A stretch of 64,000 bases of DNA, taken from Rhodothermales bacterium (GTDB lineage Bacteria; Bacteroidota; Rhodothermia; Rhodothermales; Bin80). The stretch's first letter is position 1; each line of letters begins with the position of its first letter. Positions 6,918 through 42,719 of this stretch are shown here, in pieces. Both the position numbers and the translations under genes were made by a program. The notes beneath the pieces are model-generated. The model was not told where the DNA came from. It ran no database searches and worked only from the letters and a program-made list of their open reading frames with translations. The stretch is from contig OZ244626.1 in assembly GCA_965218495.1 (NCBI GenBank), positions 1,030,469 to 1,094,468 on the forward strand, given 5' to 3'.

Positions 6918-8275
6918 AACAGTAATCTAACGCCCGCAAAGGGCTCAAAGCGCCGCTGCACGAGATAGCGAGGCGCGTCCACGCGTGCGACCAGCTCGAA
7001 GGAATAGCGTGCCAGCACATGCAGATAAAACGGACCCAGAATACGGTAGTCCGTGCCAAACACAAGTGCGCTCTGGTCATCAAAGTCTTCGAAGATGCCC
7101 AGGAAGCCGGCGGTGCCCAGCTTATCTATTCCGACCTCAAAACGAAGCCTGCTTCCACTTTGCACAAAGAGCCGAAAGTGAAACTCGCTTAGCGCCTGAC
7201 TGCCAAAGTGGCGTCGATAGTAATACCACAATGAGAAGCTAGGCGCCACTTCCAGCTTAAATTCCGTGAGCAAGTCGTTCGCGCCGCGACTCTCCTGAAT
7301 TGGCACGCCGGCAACACCATTCCCTGAGGCCTTCAGTATGCGCGCATGGACGTTGTGCACGGAATACAGCGAACCCACATACCCTGGGATGAATTGCCTG
7401 CTGTTGTAGAATACGCCGATCCGAAGTCTGAAGGTGACGAGGTCCAGGAATTCTGCGGCATGCAGATCTGCGCCAAAGGCCAGCCCGTCGCCGTAGTCCG
7501 GATACCACGCGTAGCTTAGGTATGGCGCGAAGCCCACGCCTCCTGTAGCAAACAGCTCGACTTGCAGGTCTGCGCTGTACGCTTCAAGACGCGCGTTCGG
7601 GGCTCGGTCTATCACGTAGTTGACCCCAAGTTGAGTGGTGCGCGCCGACAGACCACGCGAAAAAAAGAGTGGGTGTGCGGTTACGCGCCCACCAGCTATG
7701 CCTCCCAAGAGCACATCCCCCGTGAAGGCGGCTATGGTCAGCGCCCGACCACCATAACTGAATTCGGCGCCAACCGTCCGGCGGTCCCACGCAACGGAGG
7801 TGCTGTAGAAATTCACTACGTGTCCGATGCCGAGCCGCATCCCATCCAACAGGCCCACGCGGAGATGAATGGGCCGCGACTGCGGCGCATTGTAGCGGGC
7901 GAAGTCCACGAGCCGAAGAATGTCGTAGGGCTCATCAACATCTGGAGCATAGCGTCCCAGCGGCCCCGCTCGTAGCGTGCCGATGAGGCGCATGGTAACC
8001 GGGCGCGTAACCAGCTCCAGCCGCGCACTAGCCGCTGCGCGCCACTGAGCACCAATGAGTGATAGGCCGCCCATGGCGAAGAGGGCTTTTTCACGACGCC
8101 ACCACTGGGGCTGCAGCTGTTCCCTGAGGTCACCCTCCGAGCCAAACGGTGTCGGCTGCGCCACAGCGGGAGGAGCGAGGAAGCAAATCACCAAAAGTAG
8201 CGCAGCATTTCGCGCAAACAGGACTGCAGGGCCGCGCAGCCGCGCCTTCGCGAAACACTTAAGCCAGGATCTCAT
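6914..8275 (-). CDS. Hypothetical outer-membrane beta-barrel protein
   Basis: Start chosen at the internal Met (MRSWLKCFAKARLRGPAVLFARNAALLLVICFLAPPAVAQ, signal-peptide-like). Strand-like sequence throughout, with terminal ...FEPFAGVRLLF. The 62-codon upstream extension in the track ORF would run into the divergent gene at 8287. Confidence 0.6.
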   Translation of the reverse strand: MRSWLKCFAKARLRGPAVLFARNAALLLVICFLAPPAVAQPTPFGSEGDLREQLQPQWWRREKALFAMGGLSLIGAQWRAAASARLELVTRPVTMRLIGTLRAGPLGRYAPDVDEPYDILRLVDFARYNAPQSRPIHLRVGLLDGMRLGIGHVVNFYSTSVAWDRRTVGAEFSYGGRALTIAAFTGDVLLGGIAGGRVTAHPLFFSRGLSARTTQLGVNYVIDRAPNARLEAYSADLQVELFATGGVGFAPYLSYAWYPDYGDGLAFGADLHAAEFLDLVTFRLRIGVFYNSRQFIPGYVGSLYSVHNVHARILKASGNGVAGVPIQESRGANDLLTEFKLEVAPSFSLWYYYRRHFGSQALSEFHFRLFVQSGSRLRFEVGIDKLGTAGFLGIFEDFDDQSALVFGTDYRILGPFYLHVLARYSFELVARVDAPRYLVQRRFEPFAGVRLLF

Positions 8276-27445: not shown

Positions 27446-29248
27446 GTGATGGCACACGAACGAGGCGAGAGCTCTCCGCGCATTCATGTGATGCCAACTT
27501 CGCTGGCCAACAAGATTGCGGCCGGCGAGGTTGTGGCACGCCCTGCTTCGGTTCTCAAGGAGCTTTTGGAAAATGCCGTTGATGCGGGCGCTAAGGGCGT
27601 CAGCGTTGAAGTCAAGCGGTCAGGAAGCCTCCAGATCTATGTACGTGACGACGGCACGGGCATGGGCCCTGAGGATGCGGTGCAGTGCTTTGCGCGCCAC
27701 GCTACAAGTAAGATTCGGTCAGCAGAGGAGCTGGATCAGATCTGGACTCTGGGATTCCGTGGAGAGGCGCTGGCCTCGATTGCTGCCGTTTCGCAGGTGA
27801 CGCTGAAGACGCGACGGCCGACGGACACCGAAGGGCACATGGTGCGAATTCACGGGGGTGAAGTACTGGCGTCGGAGCCGTGTGCGGCTACAGTCGGTAC
27901 CACCATTGACGTGCGCAACCTGTTTTACAATGTCCCTGCACGCCGCGCATTTCTGAAGTCGCCTGCTACGGAGTTTTCTCATATCAGCGACGTCTTTTTA
28001 GCGCAGGCCCTAGCTAACCCGCGCATGACGTTTTCGCTCAGCCATGCAAACGCTGAGATTTTTCGCCTACCCCCTTGTCCAGGAGATGACGAAACCGCCG
28101 TGCTGCGCGTGCGGATTGGCCAGGTCTTCGGTAGTGACTACGCCGAGCGACTCATCGTCGTCCGCGAAAGCACCAGCTACATCTCAGCCTGCGGCCTCCT
28201 TTGCAGCGCCGAACAGATGCGGCGCAGCAGGAACGAACGTTTTCTGTATGTCAATGGCCGCATCGTGCGTAGCCCCTCTCTGCAGCACGCGGTGATGTCA
28301 GCATACGAAGGGATGGTATCGACCAAGCGGTATCCATTCTATGTGCTCTTTCTATCACTGGACCCCAAACATGTGGACGTAAACGTCCATCCCGCCAAGA
28401 CAGAGGTGCGGTTTGATAGTGACCGAGATGTCTATGGGTTCATGCGAGCAGTGGTACGCAAGGCGCTGGGAAGCGCGGACCTCGTGCCCCAATTCAGTCC
28501 GTCCAAGCTGGCCACGCTAAGTCTGGGGAATGCGAGTAGCCAGGAGCGGTCCAAGACCATGCAGCAGGCATCGTCCGGTGAGCAGCGGTCTTACAGATCC
28601 GCCGAGCAGCTTTCCAACACGCTGTACGCACCCACTGATGCCGACAAGTCGACCGCAGCTGAAACTACAGAAACCGCCCCACAAGTCTGGCAGCTACACA
28701 ACCAGTACATCTGCACGGCATTGCGTACGGGGTTGATGATTCTCGACCAGAGGGCAGCCCATGAGCGCATCCTGTATGAGCGGGCGCTCACCAATATCAA
28801 GGACGGCTTGGGACTATCACAGCAGTTGCTGTTCACGGAGCCAATCGACCTTGATTCGCGGGACATGGCTCTTTTCGACGAGTTGATCCCGCTATTGGTG
28901 GCATCTGGCTTTAACGTCGACAAATACAGCGGGCGCACGGTCGTGGTTCGCGGCATTCCGCAGGGCCTGCACCCGGGTACGGAAAAGCATCTTTTGCGCG
29001 ATGTGATTGCAGAGTACAAGAACAATGCGGACCAGTTGCAAGTCGGCCCGCGTGACAACCTTGCCCGGAGCGTCGCGCGACGCGGGGCCATCAGAGCAGG
29101 GACGGTCATGAATCCTGAAGAGATGAGAGCGCTCATTGATGAGCTTTTTCAGTGCCAAGATCCGTATACGGCGCCCGGCGGACGCCCTGTCCTTCTCAGG
29201 ATTTCCAAAGATGAGCTTAAGCGCCGCTTTAGCAAGGCGCCTTCGTAG
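27446..29248 (+). CDS. mutL: DNA mismatch repair protein MutL
   Basis: GHKL ATPase N-terminus (IAAGEVVARPASVLKELLENAVDAGA, VRDDGTGM, LGFRGEAL) and a C-terminal dimerisation domain. Start is GTG 27446 or ATG 27449. Confidence 0.95.
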   Translation: MMAHERGESSPRIHVMPTSLANKIAAGEVVARPASVLKELLENAVDAGAKGVSVEVKRSGSLQIYVRDDGTGMGPEDAVQCFARHATSKIRSAEELDQIWTLGFRGEALASIAAVSQVTLKTRRPTDTEGHMVRIHGGEVLASEPCAATVGTTIDVRNLFYNVPARRAFLKSPATEFSHISDVFLAQALANPRMTFSLSHANAEIFRLPPCPGDDETAVLRVRIGQVFGSDYAERLIVVRESTSYISACGLLCSAEQMRRSRNERFLYVNGRIVRSPSLQHAVMSAYEGMVSTKRYPFYVLFLSLDPKHVDVNVHPAKTEVRFDSDRDVYGFMRAVVRKALGSADLVPQFSPSKLATLSLGNASSQERSKTMQQASSGEQRSYRSAEQLSNTLYAPTDADKSTAAETTETAPQVWQLHNQYICTALRTGLMILDQRAAHERILYERALTNIKDGLGLSQQLLFTEPIDLDSRDMALFDELIPLLVASGFNVDKYSGRTVVVRGIPQGLHPGTEKHLLRDVIAEYKNNADQLQVGPRDNLARSVARRGAIRAGTVMNPEEMRALIDELFQCQDPYTAPGGRPVLLRISKDELKRRFSKAPS

Positions 29249-30607
29249 GTGGCTGAGCCCATGTTCCTTCAGAGCGTCCAGCAGCAGATTATGAGCAGGG
29301 AGCTCATGCCGGCCGGCGGGGGGGTGCTGGTTGGAGTGAGCGGCGGCATGGATTCGACTGTGTTATTGGATGCACTATGCAAGCTTGGATTCGCGGTGGA
29401 GGTGGCGCACATCAACTTTGCCCTGCGTGGAGAAGACTCACAGATGGACGAGCATTTTGTGCGGAGTCTCTGCAGAGATCACGGCCTGCCCTGCCACGTT
29501 AAGCACATGGACGCGGCAAGCCATGCGCACCAATTTCGCATGTCGGTCCAGATGGCGGCGCGCGACTTGCGATACGAAGTGTTTGCCGAGTATGCCAAGC
29601 TCTTGCGGCTTGAGTTCGTAGCTGTGGGGCACCATGCCAATGATCAAGCGGAGACCGTTCTGCTTAACTTGTTGCGAGGCTCAGGCCCCGAAGGCCTCGC
29701 CGGGATGCCTATCGTACGCGCGCTGGGGAGTGCGACGCTGGTGCGCCCACTCCTGAATCAAAGCCGCACGGCCATCGCCAAGTATGCTCACGGCGCAGGT
29801 CTCTCATGGCGAGAGGACACGTCCAATACGGACCCGAAGTACCTGCGCGGAGCGCTTCGCCAGCGCCTGTGGCCTGCTCTGAAGGAGGTGGCTGGGCCCG
29901 GCGTAGGCAGCAGAATTGCCTACAGTGCTGACTTGATGCGCGAATACGTTGACGCGGCGTTGTTACCCACACTCAGGGAAACATTCAAACGCGCCGCGGG
30001 GGAGCGCCAACTCCACTTGGATGTGCTTACGGATTTGCCCCCGGTGTGGCAGCGTCGTGTTGTCTTGGAAGCTCTAAGGTGCTGGCTGCCGGGAGCTCCG
30101 GCCTCCATCGTTGACCACGTAATGTCGCTGGTGTCCTCGCAGCCAGGACGACGTGTCACTTGTGGCGCGGGAGCGGTTTGGCGTGGCCGCGAATCCCTGC
30201 TGTTCGAGCACCACCCGGCGCCCCGCACCAATGAAGCTGTAGCCTTGCATGCAGGAAAATGCGTAGCTATAGATGGAGGCAGGGTAGAGATAACGGTATC
30301 AGATCAGTACCCGCAGAGCCTAGAGGAAGAATCACCGAAGGTGGCGTATGTGGACGGCGACCGCTTGGAGTTTCCGCTGATGGTGCGCCGCTGGCAAGCG
30401 GGAGACCGCATGGTGCCGCTGGGCATGGCCCATACCAAGAAGGTCAGCGACGTGCTGACCGATGCCAAGGTCCGCGTTGACATGCGCACCAGGGCCCACG
30501 TAGTTTGCAGTGGCAAGGACATTGTATGGTTAGTAGGCGTCCGGCTCTCCGACCTTTTTCGGGTACGGAAAGGCACACTCCGGTTCGCCAGGTTTGCTCT
30601 GCTATAG
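29249..30607 (+). CDS. tilS: tRNA(Ile)-lysidine synthetase
   Basis: PP-loop VGVSGGMDS, GHHANDQAETVLLNLLRG, and a C-terminal TilS substrate-binding domain. GTG start abuts the mutL stop. Confidence 0.9.
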   Translation: MAEPMFLQSVQQQIMSRELMPAGGGVLVGVSGGMDSTVLLDALCKLGFAVEVAHINFALRGEDSQMDEHFVRSLCRDHGLPCHVKHMDAASHAHQFRMSVQMAARDLRYEVFAEYAKLLRLEFVAVGHHANDQAETVLLNLLRGSGPEGLAGMPIVRALGSATLVRPLLNQSRTAIAKYAHGAGLSWREDTSNTDPKYLRGALRQRLWPALKEVAGPGVGSRIAYSADLMREYVDAALLPTLRETFKRAAGERQLHLDVLTDLPPVWQRRVVLEALRCWLPGAPASIVDHVMSLVSSQPGRRVTCGAGAVWRGRESLLFEHHPAPRTNEAVALHAGKCVAIDGGRVEITVSDQYPQSLEEESPKVAYVDGDRLEFPLMVRRWQAGDRMVPLGMAHTKKVSDVLTDAKVRVDMRTRAHVVCSGKDIVWLVGVRLSDLFRVRKGTLRFARFALL

Positions 30608-32201: not shown

Positions 32202-32592
32202 GAGCAGCGAGCGGGAATGACCCCGATTTCGCTGCCGTTGGTGACGCGTCGGATCGGCTGGACTGTGGTGCTACGGTCGCGAGGTGGCGATGGATGCCAT
32301 TCGTGTAGGATAGGGCACGGACTTCCGGTTTCGTCGTTGCAGACTCGCTGCTGTTCTGATTGAAAGCACCGATAAGGTTCAAAATATTGGGCCAGTCGAA
32401 ACCGCATCACCACACTATTGGGCATGTGCCGCCTTCCACCGGCAAAATGGCACCAATACACGCCGGGTACACCCATTGTGAGCACGAGCTGCCAAGCGCG
32501 TGTACGTAGATCGATGAACCGATTCGTAGCCGACTGGCGTGCCGCAGCGACCCAGAAGTGCCAGTTTGCCCGCTGTGCAGCCAGATAGCGCA

Positions 32593-34713
32593 ATGAGCAA
32601 GAAGAGCCGACACCCCCAGTTAGCGTACGAGCAAGCAGAGCATCTGCTGCAGAAGGCGGTGGGAAATCCGGCCGCGCGTTTTCGTGACGGCCAATGGGAA
32701 GCCATCGATTTGCTGGTGAGCCATAAGCGCCGACTATTGGTTGTGGAACGGACGGGCTGGGGAAAGAGCATGGTCTACTTTCTGGCCACGCGCATGCTGC
32801 GTGATCGCGGGTACGGCCCGTCGCTCGTCATCTCGCCGCTGCTCGCACTCATGAGAAATCAGGTTGCAGCCGCAGAAAGAATCGGACTGCGGGCCGACAC
32901 CATCAACTCCGCCAACCCGGATGACTGGGAAGCAATTGAACGCCAAGTCCGAAGCGGGCGCATAGATATGCTGTGGATTTCACCGGAGCGCCTGTCGAAC
33001 CAGTCTTTTGTGCAGAATGTCCTTAGGTTGGTTGCAGAGAAGATCGGCTTGGTGGTGATCGACGAGGCGCATTGCATTTCCGACTGGGGCCACGATTTCC
33101 GGCCGGACTATCGGCGGATCGTCAATGTGCTGAAACAGATGCCACCCAACATGCCTGTACTTGGCACTACGGCAACGGCAAACGATCGGGTAGTAGACGA
33201 CATAGCGCAGCAGTTGGGCGACATTCACATTCAGCGAGGGGGGCTGACGCGTGACAGCCTGGAGCTCCAAGCGGTTGTACTTCCTGATCAAGCTTTTAGG
33301 CTAGCTTGGATGGCCGAGCACATTCCGAATCTTCCCGGCACAGGTATCGTGTACGTGCTCACGAAGCGGGACGCAGATACTGTTGCAGGCTGGCTCAACC
33401 GTTGCGGGATTAATGCACGGGCCTACTATTCGGGAGTACAGGCCGAAGACCTTTCAAACAGCAACGACTATCGGCTGCATTTGGAGGGCCTTCTGCTGGG
33501 CAATAAGATCAAGATTCTCGTCGCAACGACTGCGTTGGGGATGGGCTACGACAAGCCGGATGTTGGATTCGTCATCCACTATCAAGCACCAAGCTCTGTG
33601 GTGGCTTACTATCAGCAAGTCGGACGTGCCGGCCGTGCGGTGGATCGTGCTTCGGGTGTTCTCCTGTCAGGCCATGAGGATTCAGAGATAATCGAATACT
33701 TTCGCGTTAGTGCATTTCCGTCTGAGCAGGTAATCAATCAGGTACTCGCCCTTTTGGCACGGCACGATGGACTGTCCGTTAACGGCATCAGGGACACCTT
33801 GAATGTGCGGTACGGTCAAATCAAAGACGTGCTCAAGTTTCTTTCCGTGGAGCATCCATCCCCTGTCATCAAAGATGGGTCGAAGTGGCATCGTACGCCG
33901 GTTCGGTTCAGATTCGATAAGAACCGTATTCAGCGGCTCACGGAGCAGCGGGAAGTCGAGTGGCAGGAGATTCAAGCATACATCCATACGAAGCAGTGCC
34001 GAATGGCCTTCCTTCAGCGCGCTCTGAATGATCCTGACGTCAGCGAGTGCGGACGCTGCGACAACTGCCTTGGCAGGCCGCTGATCAGCTCAAGTGCCAA
34101 TCCGAGCTTGGTTGTCCGCGCCCAGCAGTTCCTGCGGAGGATGGATTTTCCGATCGCACCCAGGATGCAAATTCCCAGGGGTGCCTGGACTAAGTACGGC
34201 CTCAGTGGCAACCTGCCGCTGGCACTAAGGGCGTCCGAGGGAAGGGCACTATCAAGGTGGGGCGACGCGGGGTGGGGAATTATTGTAAAGGAGGCAAAGC
34301 AGTCCGGTAGATTCGGCGATGACCTCGTTGATGCAACCCTAGAAATGATTCAGCGGTGGCGGCCCACACCTTTTCCCAAATGGATAACCTGCATACCGTC
34401 GGCAAGGCGCCCAAACCTCGTGCATTCATTTGCGGAACGGCTCGGGCAAAGGCTAGGTCTGCCGTTTCGTAGCGTGCTTGCCACAGCTGGCACAAGTGAC
34501 CCACAGAAGGCGCAACAGAATTCCTTTCATCAATGTAAAAACCTAGACGGGGTGTTTGCCGTGCGCGGCCGCGTTCCCAGTGCGCCGGTGCTGTTGGTTG
34601 ACGATACCGTAGACTCGCGCTGGACCTTTACGATTGCGGCTGCCCTCTTGCGTGAAGCTGGCAGCGGGGAGGTGTTTCCCATTGCGCTGGCCTTGACAAC
34701 TACGTCAGGATGA
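32593..34713 (+). CDS. RecQ-family helicase fused to a C-terminal ComF-type phosphoribosyltransferase domain (PsyrT-like)
   Basis: Walker A TGWGKS (32752-32769), DEAHC (33061-33075), helicase C motifs (VATTALGMGYDKPDV, QQVGRAGR) and a RecQ Zn cluster (C..AFL...SECGRCDNC). The last approx 110 aa carry the PRTase PRPP loop VLLVDDTVDSRWT (34588-34626). Start at internal ATG 32593. Confidence 0.85.
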   Translation: MSKKSRHPQLAYEQAEHLLQKAVGNPAARFRDGQWEAIDLLVSHKRRLLVVERTGWGKSMVYFLATRMLRDRGYGPSLVISPLLALMRNQVAAAERIGLRADTINSANPDDWEAIERQVRSGRIDMLWISPERLSNQSFVQNVLRLVAEKIGLVVIDEAHCISDWGHDFRPDYRRIVNVLKQMPPNMPVLGTTATANDRVVDDIAQQLGDIHIQRGGLTRDSLELQAVVLPDQAFRLAWMAEHIPNLPGTGIVYVLTKRDADTVAGWLNRCGINARAYYSGVQAEDLSNSNDYRLHLEGLLLGNKIKILVATTALGMGYDKPDVGFVIHYQAPSSVVAYYQQVGRAGRAVDRASGVLLSGHEDSEIIEYFRVSAFPSEQVINQVLALLARHDGLSVNGIRDTLNVRYGQIKDVLKFLSVEHPSPVIKDGSKWHRTPVRFRFDKNRIQRLTEQREVEWQEIQAYIHTKQCRMAFLQRALNDPDVSECGRCDNCLGRPLISSSANPSLVVRAQQFLRRMDFPIAPRMQIPRGAWTKYGLSGNLPLALRASEGRALSRWGDAGWGIIVKEAKQSGRFGDDLVDATLEMIQRWRPTPFPKWITCIPSARRPNLVHSFAERLGQRLGLPFRSVLATAGTSDPQKAQQNSFHQCKNLDGVFAVRGRVPSAPVLLVDDTVDSRWTFTIAAALLREAGSGEVFPIALALTTTSG

Positions 34714-34956
34714 GCCAACTGACTCGCCGCCCTATTCGATGGTACCAACATGTTGCGCGGGAATCCTGCGCGCAGGAAGTTGCTGTTTCATTGGTGACGC
34801 TGAAGATACTGCGGGTCTAAATTGCGCGCCGTGGATGGGGTGGGGGAGAGTGCGTGTGCATGTCGCACAATCCATTAACCGGCATATGGGCTCATTCTCC
34901 GTATTTTGACATTGGCGCTGGTCGAATTCGGATCGATCTGGTTTTAAAGTACCGAC

Positions 34957-36945
34957 ATGGAAGCTTCCGCTAACACCCAGGCCATCCTGCTGCTGACGAC
35001 GGCGCTGACGCCACGCGACCGCAGCGCACTAAAGCCACTGACCCCAAAGGAGTGGAGGGCGGTATGGACATGGCTTGAAGAGCAGGAGCAGCTCCCAGAG
35101 AATCTCCTGTTGGGACGCCCAGCCAAAATATTGCGAAGTTGGACCGCACAGAGTCCGCAGGTTGAAAGGATCGATGCGCTGTTGGGGCGGGGCTTACAGC
35201 TCGCACTTGCCATGGAACGGTGGGAGGGTGCCGGACTTTGGGTCATGTCATATTTGGATGAAGACTATCCCGATATGCTAAAATCCAGGCTGCCGAGTAC
35301 ATTTCCGGCAGCATTCTTTGGGTGTGGGAACCGTATGCTACTTCGCTGCAGCGGCTTATCCCTGGTAGGATCGCGGAACGCGCCTGAGGCCGACTTGAAA
35401 TATGCTAGGGAATTTGGCAGCGCTGCAGCGCAAGAGGGTGTTGCAATAGTATCGGGTGGCGCCCGGGGCGTAGATGAACACGCAATGCGTGGAGCACTTG
35501 AGCGTGGGGGGGATGTCGTCGGAATACTGACTGACAGACTGTTAAAACGGTCAATCCAAAACACGCAGCGATTCTTGAATGGTAACAATCTGGCGCTCGT
35601 TTCGGTAACTGCTCCAGAGGTGAGCCTTTTTAGGGGTGCCTTTGTTGGCGCGGCAATGCAACGCAACGACTATATCTACGGCCTATCAAGTGCCGCGGTA
35701 GTTGTTCATTCCGGCGAGAAGGGCGGCACGTGGAGCGGTGCGACCAAGAATATCAAGAGGAATTGGGTGCCTCTCTGGGTAAAGCATACACGCGATGGGA
35801 TGGCAGGCAATGCCACACTTGTGCAACAAGGCGGCAGGTGGTTGCCCGACGATATGGACCCCCTTGGCCACGTTCATCTAATCTGCAAGTCTGCTCGTAC
35901 TTCACGGTCGGCCCGGATGCCTACTGGCACTCACGCTTCATTGAAAACGCAGATTACGCAGGCGGTATTGCTTCTGACTACGCGCCTCATTGATGACGTT
36001 GACAGACGAAACGCAGTGTCTCCTATGGACTTTCGCGAATGGGGATCATTCGCCAGCTGGCTCAAGGGCCAAGGTCGTACTCCGGCGGACCTAGCAAATG
36101 GGCCGTTGGATGAGCTCTTGCAAGGATGGGATCAATCAAGCGCGTCGATCGCAAGGATCAAGGAACTGCTGGATGGTAGTCGGAAGAACAGTCTTGCCCA
36201 AGAAGAGGACGCATGGCGCGAGGCTGGGCTTTGGGTTATGACGCGGGGAGACAAGGACTATCCCAAGGCTCTCAAGGACAAGCTCAAGAGTGACTGTCCT
36301 GCTGTCTTATTTGGTTTTGGCGACCGTACTTTGCTGAGTCGCAGAAAACTGGCGGCGGTAGGATCCAGGAGGGCTGCCAAAGTAGACTTAGACTACGCGT
36401 GGGGTTTTGGCGCGGACGCAGCAACAAAAGAAAGGGTTTTAGTTTCGACCGGTACACATCGTATCGGCGAAGAGGCCATCAGGGGATCGTTGGAGAATGG
36501 TGGGGTCGCAGTCGCCGTATTCGCCGGCAACCTGCTTCGTATGGCATCCAATGCCCCCTACAGGGGATTTATCGAAAAAGGAAAATTGGTGCTCTTGTCG
36601 GCCGTGCACCCGGAGGCTAAGGCCGAGCTTGCAAAGTCGAAATTCACAAGGCAGCTCTACGAAATCGTTTACTGCCTGTCTGATGCCGCGGTGATTATTC
36701 GTTCTGGCCTCAGCGACGTAGTAATGTCCAGTGCAAAAGCGAACCTAAAGAAGAATTGGACACAGTTGTGGGTCAGAATGACAACCGATGAGAAGGCAGG
36801 AAATGCAAAGATCGTCGAAATTGGAGGCAAATGGCTGCCGGAGGGCAAAGATCTGCTCAGCCACATGCAGGACGATTTCAGTGCCAATGGGCGTTCTCTC
36901 CGGCAGGAAAGGCTACAGATTGGCATGCAAGGCCGCCTCTTTTAG
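34957..36945 (+). CDS. Tandem double DprA/Smf-like domain protein (PsyrA/ShosA-like)
   Basis: Two homologous approx 330-aa modules. Module 1 has the DprA Rossmann signature LVGSRNA...AIVSGGARGVDEHAMRGAL (35452-35475 for SGGARGVD). Module 2 aligns throughout but reads AVGSRRA...VLVSTGTHRIGEEAIRGSL. Confidence 0.8.
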   Translation: MEASANTQAILLLTTALTPRDRSALKPLTPKEWRAVWTWLEEQEQLPENLLLGRPAKILRSWTAQSPQVERIDALLGRGLQLALAMERWEGAGLWVMSYLDEDYPDMLKSRLPSTFPAAFFGCGNRMLLRCSGLSLVGSRNAPEADLKYAREFGSAAAQEGVAIVSGGARGVDEHAMRGALERGGDVVGILTDRLLKRSIQNTQRFLNGNNLALVSVTAPEVSLFRGAFVGAAMQRNDYIYGLSSAAVVVHSGEKGGTWSGATKNIKRNWVPLWVKHTRDGMAGNATLVQQGGRWLPDDMDPLGHVHLICKSARTSRSARMPTGTHASLKTQITQAVLLLTTRLIDDVDRRNAVSPMDFREWGSFASWLKGQGRTPADLANGPLDELLQGWDQSSASIARIKELLDGSRKNSLAQEEDAWREAGLWVMTRGDKDYPKALKDKLKSDCPAVLFGFGDRTLLSRRKLAAVGSRRAAKVDLDYAWGFGADAATKERVLVSTGTHRIGEEAIRGSLENGGVAVAVFAGNLLRMASNAPYRGFIEKGKLVLLSAVHPEAKAELAKSKFTRQLYEIVYCLSDAAVIIRSGLSDVVMSSAKANLKKNWTQLWVRMTTDEKAGNAKIVEIGGKWLPEGKDLLSHMQDDFSANGRSLRQERLQIGMQGRLF

Positions 36946-37236
36946 TCTGGTTACGGTGGTTGATACTGCTGGGGGCCGTGTTCTATTCGGCTCCTTAGAG
37001 CGTTGCGCCTTTTCTGACCACTATGCCAGAATGCGGAAGTAGGACCAGGAAGCCGTTGAACATGCCTCGCACAAGGGTGTTTTTGCTCAAGCAGCGCCAG
37101 CCGACGACGGCGTTGCGGTCAATCCATGCAGCCTTGGGTTACACTGCTGTGCGGGGCCACGCACGCCCTTCGTGAGTTTGCTGCGGCTCATCACATAATG
37201 TCGCCCTACCGCCCATGGGGGCATGGCGTCGTCCCG

Positions 37237-38544
37237 CTAAACCGCCAAATCAATCTCTTTGGGGTAACAGACGTAGGACTTTTCGACGAAGTTGGTCAGT
37301 GCCTTTATAGCTGGAGTGTCTGCTATGTCCGAGAGCTCACATAGCTCTCCACGCTTGTTCACGATACGGATCGGCCCTTCCGAGCGCGCGTACGCTGCAT
37401 GACGCGCGCGGTCGGTCGTCAGGTAGTAGGTAGCGTCTTCAATGGCGCTTGGAGGAGTCGATAGACCCTGTGCACACAACACGTCCGCAACGCGTTCCTT
37501 CCATTCTTCTATTTTGTGCTCTGGCGGCGCGGCATCAAGAAATGTGCACCGAAACATGTTGCGCTGAAGAAAGCGCTGGGCGAGGTCGGCCAGAATCTTG
37601 TCCGGGCTGCCGACCCACGCCTTCAGACTGCCTAATACGTCTGTGTCGTCAAGACGAAGAAAGGCGTTCAGGACGCTCTTGTCAGCCAGATCAGATTCGT
37701 GTATGGCGCGCTCCAAAAAAAACCGCAGCGGCGGCATCATGCCAGCTACTGCATCGTCGTTTTCTTCCGCCAACCACTTGCGAGCTCGCCTGATAACGGA
37801 GTAGAGTAGCTGATCACCCGCGACCACGGCCTTGTGCAGGTAGACCTGCCAGTACATTAAGTGGCGAGCAATAAGCATGTTCTCGACGGCGTAGATGCCT
37901 TTCCACTCCACGGCGACATGCGAGCCCGAACCACCAGATGTCGGGTGCACACACATGGTGTGCAATATGCGCTCGAGACCGATACGGCCTTCAATCACGC
38001 CGGTGAGATGCGAATCACGACGCAGATAGTCCAGTCGATCCATATCCAGCTGACTAGTGATCAAGTCGTGGAAAAACGATCGCTCGTACGTACCGTTAAA
38101 CATACCCAGTGCCAAATCCAATGGCGGACCTACCTTATCTGCGATTGACTTGATAAGAATGCCACTTATGACCTCGTGCGGTGTTTTCTTGATCAACCGA
38201 AACTCAAGCGTGTGCGAAAACGGCGCATGCCCAATGTCGTGCAGAAGTGCTGCGGCCATCGCTGCTTGCCGCTCTTCCCTGGAGATTGGGGTACCTTTGC
38301 CCTTCAGGATGTCTAGCGCATCTTGCATGAGCGCCATGGCACCTGTGGCGTGCGTAAAACGCGAATGCTCTGCGCCGGGAAAGACCAGGAAGCCAACCCC
38401 CAGTTGCCGTATCCTTCGCAGCCGCTGCACGTGCGGAGTCTGCAGAAGCGGCAAGAGGACATCCCGCGGCACGCTGACAAAGCCGTGAACAGGATCAGAA
38501 AGATAGACGCTATCCGCAGCCCGCATCGTAGCTACGCTCGTCAA
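37237..38544 (-). CDS. HD-domain phosphohydrolase (COG1078 / dNTP triphosphohydrolase-like)
   Basis: HSRFTHATGA...AALLHDIGHAPFSH (H...HD...D metal site) and later RRDSHLTG. The approx 430-aa architecture resembles SAMHD1/EF1143-type HD proteins. Confidence 0.8.
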   Translation of the reverse strand: MTSVATMRAADSVYLSDPVHGFVSVPRDVLLPLLQTPHVQRLRRIRQLGVGFLVFPGAEHSRFTHATGAMALMQDALDILKGKGTPISREERQAAMAAALLHDIGHAPFSHTLEFRLIKKTPHEVISGILIKSIADKVGPPLDLALGMFNGTYERSFFHDLITSQLDMDRLDYLRRDSHLTGVIEGRIGLERILHTMCVHPTSGGSGSHVAVEWKGIYAVENMLIARHLMYWQVYLHKAVVAGDQLLYSVIRRARKWLAEENDDAVAGMMPPLRFFLERAIHESDLADKSVLNAFLRLDDTDVLGSLKAWVGSPDKILADLAQRFLQRNMFRCTFLDAAPPEHKIEEWKERVADVLCAQGLSTPPSAIEDATYYLTTDRARHAAYARSEGPIRIVNKRGELCELSDIADTPAIKALTNFVEKSYVCYPKEIDLAV

Positions 38545-38561
38545 ACCGACCCTGAATCACA

Positions 38562-39977
38562 ATGAGTATCCGATGCTGCATAGCGGTAGGTCTGAATTAT
38601 GCACCTAAGGTAACGTACGCCTTGCGCATGCTTCTGTTGCCCCTAGGCATTGATCCTGTCTGGGTGGCCGACGGCGAACTGCGTGACGGAGACCTTTACT
38701 ACGGTCCGCAAGACAAATCGCTAAGAAAGGGAGTGCTGTCCCTATCTTTTTCGCAGCAGGCAGAGGCCTATTTCGCCGCAGGCATCCCGTACCGTGCGGG
38801 AGACTCCTGCATACGCACTTGGGATGGCGAGTCTTGGCCTGTCCTGTTTTCCGGAGAGGAGCCAGGCAGCGATGACCTGGTGGCGTCCACCTTCTTTTGG
38901 CTCTCTGGCTGGCAGGAGCATGTAGTGCCGTTTCGGGACATCCATGCGCGCTTTTCGCATGGGGAGTCGCTTCAGCGCACCCTCGGCGTAACCGCTAGAC
39001 CGGTGGTAGACGCCTACCGCTCACGCCTTGCGTCACAGCTCCAGCGACATGGTGTACCAACCAATCTTCGCAGATGGGGTGGAGCAACCTGGGCCCTGTG
39101 CCCTACATTTGATGTCGACTACCTGGTGAAGTGGCGCAAGGGCATGATCTACCGCGAGGTGGTGGAATACCTCTTGCGCAACCTGCGATCTGAGTACCTG
39201 AGCGCGCGCGTTCGGCGATTTGGGCAGGTTCTGCGTGATACGTTGCGACAAGGCGATGTCTACCAAACCGCGCTCATGCGAATCCACCAAACGATCAAGC
39301 ACCACGGCACTGGAACGTTTTTTTTTAAGGCGGCAGCGCATGGACCACGGGACGTACACTACAGTCTGCAGCACCCATTCCTGCGGAAGTTCGTAGCGAC
39401 TCTAGCAGAGGATGGATTCGAGCTGGGTGTTCATCCGAGCTATCACGCGCACACGCACTTCGAGTACATGTTGGCCGAGCGGGAGGCTGTAGCGAAACTG
39501 GCAGGACGTCCACCGCTTAGTGTCCGGCAACACTTCCTGCGCTACGAAGCGCCCATTACGCCAAGGCTTCAAGAACGGTTGGGCTACAAAATCGACTCAA
39601 CCTTGGGCTTTGCCGAACATGAAGGATTTCGCAATGGCACCTGTATGCCCTTTCTGCGATTTGACACCTCGGCCAACGCAGTTACCGGTGTGTGGGAAAT
39701 GCCGCTTGCCGTCATGGAGTCTGCACTCTTCAATCGTCGTGGGCTGGACTTGGCGGCCGCCAAGCAAGCTACCCGTGACATCCTGGCCCAATGCCGCCGA
39801 TTCGGCGGTGCCGCGGTAATACTCTGGCACACCGTACTCTGGGATGAGATGGACCACCCAGGCTGGGGTGAACATTTCCTCGAGACGTTAGCATGTGCGG
39901 CAGAGCAAATGGCGCAGGTGGCTTCACTTCAAGAGGCACTTTCTGCTTGGCTGGGCGGAACCGTCGCTGCTACTTAA
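38562..39977 (+). CDS. Hypothetical protein, possible polysaccharide-deacetylase-like (CE4-type) C-terminal domain
   Basis: 471-aa ORF. The segment TFDVDY...GTFFFKA...GFELGVHPSYHAH...VRQHFLRY resembles a deacetylase beta/alpha barrel with Asp/His motifs. The N-terminal half is unrecognised. Confidence 0.45.
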   Translation: MSIRCCIAVGLNYAPKVTYALRMLLLPLGIDPVWVADGELRDGDLYYGPQDKSLRKGVLSLSFSQQAEAYFAAGIPYRAGDSCIRTWDGESWPVLFSGEEPGSDDLVASTFFWLSGWQEHVVPFRDIHARFSHGESLQRTLGVTARPVVDAYRSRLASQLQRHGVPTNLRRWGGATWALCPTFDVDYLVKWRKGMIYREVVEYLLRNLRSEYLSARVRRFGQVLRDTLRQGDVYQTALMRIHQTIKHHGTGTFFFKAAAHGPRDVHYSLQHPFLRKFVATLAEDGFELGVHPSYHAHTHFEYMLAEREAVAKLAGRPPLSVRQHFLRYEAPITPRLQERLGYKIDSTLGFAEHEGFRNGTCMPFLRFDTSANAVTGVWEMPLAVMESALFNRRGLDLAAAKQATRDILAQCRRFGGAAVILWHTVLWDEMDHPGWGEHFLETLACAAEQMAQVASLQEALSAWLGGTVAAT

Positions 39978-40088
39978 GGTGGGAATGAAAGATTAGAGAC
40001 CATTCGCCAGTGGCCGAACACTATCGGTGCCATGCGTTAATATACCGAGCCAACAAGTAGTCAACAGGCTGCTCCCAAGACCATCACT

Positions 40089-42719
40089 ATGCCGTCCACG
40101 AGCATCCAGCGGGGCGAAACCCCGCTAATGAGACAATACTACCGACTCAAGTCGCAATATCCGGACCGGTTGCTACTGTTTCGGATGGGAGACTTCTACG
40201 AGACTTTCTCAGAAGATGCGCTCACGGCGAGCAGCGTATTGGGCATCGTCCTTTCCAAGCGTGCCAACGGCCGAGCCAACTCGGTGCCTTTAGCTGGATT
40301 CCCGCATCACGCAATCGACAAACACCTGCCGAAGCTAGTCCGGGCAGGCCTTCGCGTAGCCATCTGCGAACAGCTTGAGGACCCCAAGAAGACGCGCAAA
40401 CTCGTCAAGCGGGGCGTAGTCGAGGTTGTTTCACCGGGGGTTTCGTTGCACGACAACCTGCTTAGTCCCAAGCAGGTCAATTACCTTGCTGCGGTGCACT
40501 GGGCACAGGTAGGGCGGCAGTCCACTATTGTCGGCGTGGCCTATGTGGACGTTTCCACCGGAGAATTCGTGGTGACTGAATCTGAACCCGCGCAGCTTGA
40601 GAGCCTTCTCTATTCCATTGCTCCGAGCGAGATCTTAGTCGACAAGCGCCTGAAGAGCCGCTTGGAGGCTGTCCGCTTCACAGACTACATCACAACACCG
40701 CAGGAGGACTGGGTTTTCACGCGTGACTATTCCCGCGATGTGTTGCTACGCCACTTCGGTACGCACTCGCTGAAGGGCTTTGGCGTGGAATCGCTCCGCC
40801 ACGGCCTGGTTGCTGCAGGTGCAGTGCTGCATTACTTGGGCGAAGCGCAGCAAGGCCACCTGTCGCATATCAGGCGGATTGCGCCGCGCCCGGATAGTGG
40901 AAGCATGCGCCTTGATCCCCAGACCAAGGCAAACCTTTCGCTGGTGTCCTCCACGCAGGAGGGCAGGCAGGATGGTCCGTTAGTCCAGCTAATGGACCAA
41001 ACATGTACGGCCATGGGCGCCCGACTTCTTCGGCACTGGCTCGGAGCGCCGCTCTGCGAGGTCGATGCGATTCAAAAACGCCTGGATACCGTTGAGGCGC
41101 TGTTTGGCGATATACCTCTTCGAGAAAAGGTGATGGAGAGACTGCAGCCCATCTGCGATATGGAGCGGGTAGTGGCGCGCGTATGCACCGGCCGTGCGTC
41201 GCCACGCGATCTTGGAGCGTTGGCGCACTCTCTGGCGGGACTGCCAGGACTTAAAGTAATACTTAAAGAAGGTACCTCTAACATACTACGTACATTAGGC
41301 TCAGACCTTGATCCTTGTAGTAATACATGTAGATTGATAAAGCGCGCGCTAGTAGGAATCCCACCGACCTCCTTGAGGGAGGGTAACGTCTTCCGCGACG
41401 GGTACAATAAAAAGCTTGATCACCTGCGATCGCTTGCGCGTTCGGGCAAAGACTTTGTGGCCAAGATGCAGAAGGCCGAGATCGAGCGCACGGGCATCCC
41501 GTCACTGAAAGTGGGTTACAACAGGGTCTTCGGGTACTACCTCGAAATCACCAACGCCCACAAGGACAAGGTCCCGTCCAACTACATCCGCAAGCAGACG
41601 CTGGTCAATGCCGAACGGTACATCACCCCTGAGCTGAAGGAGTATGAGGACCAGATCCTGAACGCTGAAGACAAGCTGATCGATCTGGAGCGCGAGCTCT
41701 TTATGGAGCTGAGGGCCGATGTGGCACGCGATGCTACGGCACTGCAGAGCGCTGCGGCAATACTTGCGACACTTGATTGCTACTGTGCCTTCGCCGAGGC
41801 GGCCAGCAATCATGACTTTCGCCGACCCCTGATTGATGACTCACTGCGCCTGCATATCGAGGATGGACGCCACCCGGTGGTGGAACAGACCGTGGAAGTG
41901 TTCATCCCAAACACGGTAGAGCTGAACCCGGCGCAAGGCCAGATCTACGTGATCACCGGCCCCAACATGGCCGGCAAGAGCGTTGTGCTTCGCCAGACCG
42001 GTCTCATCGTGCTTCTAGCTCAGGCGGGTTCGTTTGTGCCGGCGCGAAGTGCGCATGTCGGCGTAGTGGACCGCATCTTCACGCGGGTAGGCGCTTCTGA
42101 CAATCTGGTAGCAGGGGAGAGCACATTTCTGGTGGAGATGAATGAGACCGCCAACATCTTGCACAACGCGACGCCACGGTCCCTAATCCTGCTTGACGAG
42201 GTAGGGCGCGGCACAAGCACCTTTGATGGGCTATCCATCGCGTGGGCTCTAGTTGAGCACCTTCACGAGGAGTCACGTGTGGCGGCGCGTACGCTTTTTG
42301 CTACGCACTTTCACGAGCTCAATGAGCTTGCGGAGCGTTTTTCCCGCGTGCGCAACTACCGGGTGCAGGTGCAGGAGCACGAAGGCAAGGTGGTGTTTCT
42401 TAGAAAACTGGTGCCCGGTGGAGCGGATCATTCCTACGGACTTGAGGTCGCACGCATGGCGGGCCTGCCAGGCTCGCTGTTGAAAAGGGCCAAGGAAATC
42501 CTGGTGCAGTTGGAACAGCAGCCGGCGCAGGAAGCGGTGGTGTCTGCGCCAAAGCCACAGGAGGATAAGGAGGCCAAAGGGATTCAGATGACGTTGTTTT
42601 CCTGGGATGCGGACAGCCAAGTGGCGGAAAGAGTGCGTGCGCTCGATCCGAACAACATGACGCCCATGCAGGCACTGGTAGCATTGGTAGAGCTGAAGGA
42701 GCTGGCGGAAAACGAGTAG
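40089..42719 (+). CDS. mutS: DNA mismatch repair protein MutS
   Basis: TPLMRQYYRLKSQYPDRLLLFRMGDFYETF mismatch-binding N-terminus. Walker A GPNMAGKS, LLDEVGRGTSTFDG and FATHFHEL. Confidence 0.95.
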   Translation: MPSTSIQRGETPLMRQYYRLKSQYPDRLLLFRMGDFYETFSEDALTASSVLGIVLSKRANGRANSVPLAGFPHHAIDKHLPKLVRAGLRVAICEQLEDPKKTRKLVKRGVVEVVSPGVSLHDNLLSPKQVNYLAAVHWAQVGRQSTIVGVAYVDVSTGEFVVTESEPAQLESLLYSIAPSEILVDKRLKSRLEAVRFTDYITTPQEDWVFTRDYSRDVLLRHFGTHSLKGFGVESLRHGLVAAGAVLHYLGEAQQGHLSHIRRIAPRPDSGSMRLDPQTKANLSLVSSTQEGRQDGPLVQLMDQTCTAMGARLLRHWLGAPLCEVDAIQKRLDTVEALFGDIPLREKVMERLQPICDMERVVARVCTGRASPRDLGALAHSLAGLPGLKVILKEGTSNILRTLGSDLDPCSNTCRLIKRALVGIPPTSLREGNVFRDGYNKKLDHLRSLARSGKDFVAKMQKAEIERTGIPSLKVGYNRVFGYYLEITNAHKDKVPSNYIRKQTLVNAERYITPELKEYEDQILNAEDKLIDLERELFMELRADVARDATALQSAAAILATLDCYCAFAEAASNHDFRRPLIDDSLRLHIEDGRHPVVEQTVEVFIPNTVELNPAQGQIYVITGPNMAGKSVVLRQTGLIVLLAQAGSFVPARSAHVGVVDRIFTRVGASDNLVAGESTFLVEMNETANILHNATPRSLILLDEVGRGTSTFDGLSIAWALVEHLHEESRVAARTLFATHFHELNELAERFSRVRNYRVQVQEHEGKVVFLRKLVPGGADHSYGLEVARMAGLPGSLLKRAKEILVQLEQQPAQEAVVSAPKPQEDKEAKGIQMTLFSWDADSQVAERVRALDPNNMTPMQALVALVELKELAENE

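Follow-up and report, generated by a model that had tools for sequence, protein, structure and literature searches.

A PsyrA-type antitoxin with two fused DprA-like modules in a Rhodothermales PsyrTA locus

The stretch analysed here, referred to as the window, comprises 64,000 nucleotides of a Rhodothermales bacterium (GenBank assembly GCA_965218495.1, contig OZ244626.1, positions 1,030,469 to 1,094,468). It contains a toxin gene of the psyrT (rqlH) type, followed directly on the same strand by an antitoxin gene of the psyrA (rqlI) type whose product carries its DprA-like unit twice. An earlier note, made from the letters of the sequence alone, had described this 662-amino-acid (aa) protein as an internal tandem duplication, split at about aa 330, with one canonical and one degenerate module. 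Our analysis bore out both parts of this description, and the result is a rare, lineage-restricted and apparently undescribed architecture of the antitoxin of a known system. The features on which the argument rests are listed below, in window coordinates.

32539-34713, forward strand: psyrT (rqlH-type toxin), a RecQ-like helicase that ends in a phosphoribosyltransferase (PRTase) domain at its C-terminus (PADLOC, Pfam)
34714-34956, forward strand: spacer of 243 bp between psyrT and psyrA (sequence read)
34957-36945, forward strand: doubled psyrA (rqlI-type antitoxin), 662 aa, two modules of SAM-like domain plus DprA/SLOG Rossmann domain, without the C-terminal helix-turn-helix (HTH) (open reading frame (ORF), Pfam, PADLOC, AlphaFold2 (AF2))
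34957-35943, forward strand: module 1 (M1), canonical, aa 1-329 (alignment to single PsyrA, motifs, AF2)
35368-35376, forward strand: G138-S-R140 motif of module 1, invariant in module 1 and in single-module PsyrA
35452-35475, forward strand: glycine loop of module 1, S166-G-G-A-R-G-V-D173, invariant in module 1 and single forms
35662-35667, forward strand: R236-N237 of module 1, invariant; R236 is the equivalent of ShosA R234, which binds single-stranded DNA (ssDNA)
35722-35742, forward strand: G256-G-T-W-S-G-A262 motif of module 1, invariant in module 1 and single forms
35944-36942, forward strand: module 2 (M2), degenerate but selected, aa 330-662 (PF02481 E = 7.6e-21, PsyrA profile E = 8.6e-82)
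36445-36468, forward strand: degenerate glycine loop of module 2, S497-T-G-T-H-R-I-G504 (alignment with module 1)
36655-36657, forward strand: L567 of module 2, at the column of the ssDNA-binding Arg (R236 of module 1) (module alignment)

A PsyrTA locus with an internally duplicated antitoxin

The upstream gene was identified as psyrT by PADLOC, Pfam and motifs, in agreement with the RecQ-PRTase neighbour that the earlier note had named. Specifically, its product matches the PADLOC PsyrT profile PDLC03928 (E = 4.6e-293, profile positions 5-686 of 689), contains the Pfam domains DEAD, Helicase_C and RecQ_Zn_bind, and has intact motifs, namely Walker A GWGKS (aa 73), DEAH (aa 175) and an acidic loop of the phosphoribosyl pyrophosphate (PRPP) type, LLVDDTVDSRWT (aa 685-696). 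The ORF is 724 aa as listed, and translation probably begins at the ATG of codon 19. Since a complete PsyrT with intact motifs lies directly upstream of the PsyrA match, the sequence identifies the pair as a PsyrTA (RqlHI) toxin-antitoxin/anti-phage locus, and the locus belongs to a system already known (Sberro 2013; Russell & Mulvey 2015, PMC4670107; Millman 2022), not to a new kind of system. The toxic part of RqlH/PsyrT is its PRTase domain, whose toxicity induces the SOS response; RqlI binds this domain and counteracts the toxicity, and the HTH of RqlI is dispensable for antitoxin activity (PMC4670107). Protection against phage was shown for single-module PsyrTA systems only, and a ΔpsyrA construct could not be transformed, probably owing to toxicity (both in the Millman 2022 preprint).

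The antitoxin ORF contains zero internal stops, and the junction region (35860-36000), where the earlier note had considered that a stop might have been missed, has none in frame. When aa 1-329 were aligned with aa 330-662 by BLASTP, 128 of 331 positions were identical (39%, E = 2e-67) and the match was co-linear over the full length; the five pairs of matching blocks quoted in the earlier note are all present. Moreover, both halves pass the PF02481 (DNA_processg_A) gathering cutoff of 29.6 bits, with 186.1 bits for the whole protein in two stretches, 114.8 bits for module 1 (E = 4e-33) and 74.7 bits for module 2 (E = 7.6e-21). The PADLOC PsyrA profile PDLC03927 also matches in two stretches (E = 1.5e-190), and each module scored separately covers positions 1-315 of its 398 (E = 4e-109 for M1, 9e-82 for M2). 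Two copies of a DprA-like unit are fused in one antitoxin chain, and since the halves share almost no similarity at the DNA level (best blastn E = 0.01), the duplication must be old. An assembly fusion of two genes is ruled out, because the two-module ORF recurs: about 20 divergent proteins have it, as do 13 species-representative genomes.

The doubling is accompanied by a different C-terminus. Single-form PsyrA proteins end in an acidic linker followed by a conserved segment of about 60 aa with a weak HTH_29 match, the counterpart of the HTH known from RqlI (PMC4670107); the doubled proteins show no trace of this segment. A BLAST comparison with 99 single-form tails gave no match to the C-terminal HTH tail of ordinary PsyrA/RqlI in the 662-aa protein; with the same result we rejected the idea that the single forms are truncated doubles whose tail is homologous to module 2. 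The sequences indicate that the HTH tail was lost in the doubled form. An in-frame ATG (codon M321, 35917-35919) is found 13 codons ahead of the conserved start of module 2, which could in principle be translated separately from it; this Met is not conserved in most doubled homologues.

Structure prediction with AF2, based on a 79-sequence alignment, gave a mean predicted local distance difference test (pLDDT) score of 91.3 and a predicted TM-score (pTM) of 0.62 for the full-length protein, and 91.2 and 0.89, respectively, for module 1 alone. Both modules are predicted to fold like DprA, with pLDDT above 90. In module 1 an N-terminal helical domain (aa 1-92) precedes the Rossmann domain (aa 93-300), after which come a confident helix (aa 302-320) and a low-confidence hinge of four residues (aa 321-324). 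In module 2 the N-terminal domain spans aa 330-422 and the Rossmann-like domain aa 423-631, while the C-terminal helix (aa 633-659) is of low confidence, the last 30 residues of the protein being poorly defined. The best structural matches in Foldseek were SpDprA (3UQZ, TM 0.80, target-normalised), Rhodopseudomonas palustris DprA, ShosA (8ZVA, 0.68) and HpDprA, with other SLOG/LOG-type Rossmann proteins further down the list. The PDB yielded no DprA in which two Rossmann modules stand in tandem.

Compared with known proteins, the closest is ordinary PsyrA/RqlI, to which the window protein is linked by the PDLC03927 match, 53% identity of module 1 to single-module PsyrA, the same invariant motifs and a psyrT gene directly upstream. 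The ordinary form, however, measures 400-480 aa, its single module being followed by an acidic linker and an HTH at the C-terminus (PMC4670107), whereas the window protein is two-module and HTH-less, and its second module is without the pocket motifs. With ShosA (8ZVA, 9VZO; PMC11961720, PMC12961424) it shares the SAM-like N-domain and the DprA Rossmann domain (profile E = 1.5e-17), a partner toxin with a PRTase domain and, in module 1, the ssDNA-binding arginines. In contrast to the window protein, ShosA is a single-module homodimer with a helicase-less toxin, where the window partner PsyrT has a helicase; the PADLOC ShosA profiles reach only 2e-26 and 5e-06, against 1.5e-190 for PsyrA, and the dimer-interface residues of ShosA are not conserved. 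Finally, both modules pass the DprA/Smf family model (PF02481; structures 3UQZ, 4LJR and 3MAJ), the best structural match is SpDprA, and module 1 carries GSR, SGxAxGxD and RN, but the protein scores 133.6 against a cutoff of 191.15 with the TIGR00732 equivalog and 87.3 against 495 with NF008007, stands in a toxin-antitoxin rather than a competence context, and is doubled.

Unequal motif retention and purifying selection in the two modules

Module 1 contains every family-invariant pocket motif. The DprA pocket motifs GSR (aa 138-140), SGxAxGxD (aa 166-173) and RN (aa 236-237) are all present, and the glycine loop (AIVSGGARGVDEHA, aa 163-176) aligns with SGLAKGID of SpDprA. R140 corresponds to R139 of ShosA, mapped via the 9VZO alignment, and to R52 of HpDprA. 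ShosA R139 and R234 and HpDprA R52 are ssDNA-binding residues (PMC12961424), and in ShosA both R139 and R234 are needed for ssDNA binding and for antitoxin activity (PMC12961424, PMC11961720).

The glycine loop of module 2 is VLVSTGTHRIGEEA (aa 494-507). The two loops are exactly as the earlier note had quoted them, and the module 2 loop is divergent and non-canonical in 19/19 module-2 sequences. The loss extends beyond this loop. We scored 68 columns that are at least 89% conserved and have the same residue in module 1 and in the single forms; module 2 keeps 24 of the 25 columns of the N-terminal part (the first ~130 residues, with the helical SAM-like domain, YP and FGxG) and 13 of the 43 Rossmann columns (Fisher p = 4e-8). 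The lost positions are precisely those of the family's pocket motifs, in module 1 numbering G-S-R140, S166-GGAxGxD173, M177, G189, A233-MxRN237 and G256-GTWxGA262. The window module 2 does retain GSR, at aa 469-471, and has no other DprA pocket motif; the Arg equivalent to R140 is kept in three of the 19 module-2 sequences, the window protein (R471) being one of them. At the R236 column 17/19 module-2 sequences have His (88% of the 16 full-length ones), and the window protein has Leu567. Residues conserved specifically in module 2 are few, namely D349, G524, the His at the R236 column and a Cys at the N265 column; two of these are absent from the window protein (it has L567 and N596). The asymmetry, a canonical module 1 and a degenerate module 2, holds across the whole doubled clade.

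Despite these losses both modules are under purifying selection. The ratio of nonsynonymous to synonymous substitution rates (dN/dS) of module 2 was 0.17-0.23 in five of seven pairs and 0.41-0.43 in the other two; in three close pairs it was 0.08-0.13 for module 1 versus 0.18-0.21 for module 2, and it stayed below 0.45 in all pairs. Moreover, the Rossmann part of module 2 is the more basic one, with a charge of +12 versus +4 for module 1 in the window protein (clade means +6.8 versus +4.1). The earlier note had called the second half probably inactive; 'inactive' is too strong, because module 2 is under purifying selection (dN/dS 0.17-0.43), has a confidently predicted DprA-like fold with an N-terminal domain as conserved as that of module 1, and has a basic Rossmann part. 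To judge from these sequence properties, module 2 has lost the canonical pocket and not its function.

Relatives, single origin and variant loci

A word-indexed search retrieved 1435 relatives, including one identical protein. Besides this one, about 19 relatives, 545-717 aa long, align with the query over its whole length (37-46% identity) and have the same two-module layout; the other listed relatives, of 400-480 aa, match only about half of the query. An exhaustive search of 50%-identity representatives (E <1e-30) gave 943 clusters, ~15 of them doubled, and in species-representative genomes we found 356 loci with a relative, among the best 80 of which 13 were doubled and the rest single. 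These 13 loci come from 11 Rhodothermales and two Flavobacteriaceae metagenome-assembled genomes (MAGs). Doubled forms amount to roughly 1.6-3.7% of the family, a rare and lineage-restricted minority and not the common form, a possibility that the earlier note had proposed to survey. Our search of open-access papers and preprints found no description of a doubled PsyrA/DprA-like form: the papers found on PsyrTA, ShosTA, RqlI and DprA tandem duplication or pseudo-dimers deal with single-module proteins only, and neither the RqlHI distribution survey nor the Millman preprint mentions it.

For the origin of the doubling, we cut 19 doubled proteins into their modules and placed these, with 25 single-module PsyrA, in a neighbour-joining tree. 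Simple corrected distances were used in the neighbour-joining trees, and a few saturated pairs gave numerical warnings. Module 2 (99/100 bootstraps), module 1 (91/100) and the sampled single forms (98/100) formed separate clades, and the internal branching of the module 1 and module 2 clades was congruent, which points to one ancestral duplication followed by co-divergence of the two modules.

The toxin gene goes with the doubled form in most cases. A full PsyrT is encoded upstream in 8/13 of the doubled species-representative loci, and in three further metagenome loci. The PsyrT partners of doubled antitoxins group together (31/50 bootstraps, with locus L021 borderline), which is consistent with co-inheritance of PsyrT with doubled PsyrA. 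In four of the 13 loci (L010, L013, L014 and L019) psyrT is absent and the doubled gene is intact.

Several variant loci were observed in the course of this comparison. L020, the remaining one of the 13 loci, has an intact doubled psyrA, and upstream of it, at 6984-7886, PsyrT is reduced to its C-terminal 300 aa (RecQ Zn-binding plus PRTase), a layout that is either ShosTA-like or an intermediate of decay; in L010, 85% identical to L020, this remnant is wholly gone. MazG, seen in L001/L010, was considered as an alternative partner and rejected as a mere flanking gene, because L020 (85% aa identity) has the same MazG and also carries the PsyrT remnant. In L013 and L014 an 860-aa helicase lies upstream of the intact doubled psyrA; it was likewise rejected as an alternative toxin, being a Type III restriction enzyme. 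In L017, 94% identical, psyrT is retained, and the L013/L014 gene may be either an orphan antitoxin or one with a toxin-independent function. The closest relative, L089, is 88% identical at the nucleotide level to window positions 34559-39986. Its psyrT is reduced to the last 51 codons beside two DDE transposases, and its psyrA is frameshifted in module 2, on a contig of 6x coverage; a sequencing error may therefore account for the frameshift.

Repeated duplication of the doubled gene was seen twice. In L005/L009 (2153-6169; Rhodothermales MAG contig JAAXGV010000145.1) psyrT is followed by two tandem doubled psyrA genes (670 and 664 aa) that are 64% identical to each other at the aa level (dN/dS ~0.4), so that four DprA-like modules stand one after another; the locus is syntenic with the window, the same HD-domain gene following (65% aa identity). 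In L002 (1093-8154, the same place as L016) one doubled gene of 677 aa, matching the PsyrA profile with E = 9e-116, lies upstream of psyrT and another of 717 aa downstream of it. Other PsyrA fusions (P0215, P0212 and P0015) were also found, namely a single module with a C-terminus resembling Type IIG restriction enzymes/methyltransferases (712 aa), a PDC-M42C-like N-terminus joined to PsyrA (707 aa), and module 1 plus a truncated module 2 joined to an unrelated segment of ~450 aa (1018 aa).

Possible roles of the second module

DprA/Smf is a recombination mediator that loads RecA, and DprA is an obligate homodimer. The same unit is found in one chain twice in the window protein, and on balance, with moderate confidence, we read it as a single-chain pseudo-heterodimer antitoxin of PsyrTA. 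ShosA is a homodimer as well, and its dimerisation and ssDNA binding are required for antitoxin activity; it also binds RecA, which touches only one of the two protomers in an AlphaFold 3 (AF3) model, a prediction and not an experiment (PMC12961424). It is because DprA and ShosA are obligate homodimers, and because RecA contacts one ShosA protomer in this model, that a built-in, asymmetric 'dimer' in a single chain appears plausible. One ancient internal duplication of the SAM-like plus DprA/SLOG Rossmann unit gave the two-module protein, with loss of the HTH tail. Module 1 would supply the ssDNA- or ligand-binding site, possibly the one that engages RecA, module 2 would be a permanently attached partner protomer or scaffold, and the two would jointly hold the genotoxic PRTase domain of PsyrT in check until the balance is disturbed by infection or DNA stress. 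Antitoxin activity, dimer-like packing within the chain and the sharing of tasks between the modules are what we infer from the analysis as a whole.

Several observations weigh against this reading. First, AF2 leaves the geometry of the two modules unfixed: since pTM falls from 0.89 for module 1 alone to 0.62 at full length, their mutual position is not confidently predicted. Second, the dimer-interface residues L181/F182 of ShosA map to polar residues, E182/R183 in module 1 and E513/N514 in module 2, so the ShosA interface is not simply transferable to PsyrA, and we discarded this comparison as uninformative. Third, the SpDprA dimer contacts H260/L269 map to a C-terminal GNxxIVxxGxWLP element that is better kept in module 2 and in the single forms than in module 1 of the doubled clade, where there are insertions. 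Fourth, module 2, given its more basic Rossmann part, may still be able to bind nucleic acid. Finally, the persistence of intact doubled psyrA genes without psyrT, in 4-5 genomes, hints at a toxin-independent role or at recent loss of the toxin.

A division of labour without a pseudo-dimer, in which module 2 binds PsyrT or senses the trigger and module 1 does the DNA/RecA work, is the main rival, although we find it less likely. The modules would then be beads on a string, and the protein may homodimerise to a four-module assembly. The almost perfectly kept N-terminal domain of module 2 (24/25 columns) and its own conserved residues (D349, G524, the His at the R236 column, the Cys at the N265 column) speak for such a division, the intermediate pTM of 0.62 fits flexible modules, and the repeated duplication in L005 and L002 would be expected of a specificity or sensor component. 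Yet the linker consists of only ~4 disordered residues after a confident helix, which limits independent movement, and the positions conserved specifically in module 2 are few, two of them missing from the window protein itself (L567, N596).

We regard as unlikely a further reading, in which module 2 is a pseudo-DprA domain turned into a regulatory or sensor partner in an obligate asymmetric single-chain dimer, PsyrT is released via module 2, and this module also has a toxin-independent role. The trigger acting through module 2 might be, for example, a phage protein, or ssDNA competing for RecA. This reading would explain why doubled genes survive the loss of psyrT (L010, L013, L014, L019), and also the re-duplication beside psyrT (L005, L002) and the PRTase-only remnant of L020.

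It is quite improbable that the two modules are equivalent antitoxin units, the doubling raising dose or avidity by providing two PsyrT-neutralising sites and the motif loss in module 2 being irrelevant. The strong PsyrA profile match and the purifying selection in both modules, and the still basic Rossmann part of module 2, would all agree with such equivalence. The motifs lost in module 2 are, however, invariant in ~60 single-module and module 1 sequences, include residues that ShosA, at the equivalent positions, needs for antitoxin activity (PMC12961424), and are lost consistently across the module 2 clade over deep divergence.

It is scarcely credible, and already refuted by the conservation and the dN/dS values, that module 2 is what remains of a decaying copy, or that two neighbouring genes were fused into the long ORF by annotation or assembly: the frameshifted module 2 of L089, with its psyrT destroyed by insertion sequence (IS) elements, would fit, but L089 is on a 6x-coverage contig with the toxin already gone, so that decay or sequencing error is expected there, whereas the window has no stop or frameshift, ~20 proteins, with identities as low as 37%, share the architecture, and module 2 has a dN/dS of ~0.2 and a fold predicted with pLDDT >90.

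Work on the role of the dimer in DprA-like antitoxins has just begun, with the sister system ShosTA. If the pseudo-heterodimer reading holds, the doubled PsyrA would be a natural single-chain version and a ready-made asymmetric construct, with one protomer that has the ssDNA-binding pocket and another that lacks it and is still selected, and it could be used to ask how many functional sites an antitoxin dimer needs and which surface holds the PRTase domain of the toxin. Moreover, the Rhodothermales loci display several stages of toxin loss with antitoxin retention. As for annotation, profile-based defence finders label the protein PsyrA and miss its doubled, HTH-less architecture.

As regards the surroundings, the spacer between psyrT and psyrA is kept at ~88% nucleotide identity in L089, and a scan of the locus, spacer included, for promoter and terminator patterns gave nothing above shuffle expectation. 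The composition profile showed no clear island signature, the locus having 54-57% GC and the flanks 57-60%. Upstream of the pair lie mutL, tilS and a gene for a TIM-barrel protein with a twin-arginine translocation (TAT) signal; downstream lie genes for an HD-domain protein and a DUF7033/VimE-like protein, and mutS. The pair stands between mismatch-repair genes, with mutL (then tilS; window 27446-30607) on one side and mutS (40089-42719) on the other, which is probably a coincidence. The HD-domain protein (435 aa, HD plus HD_assoc_2, window 37237-38544, reverse strand) has faint dGTPase-like matches, and its gene has been conserved next to the locus, with 65% aa identity in L005 and 89% in L089.

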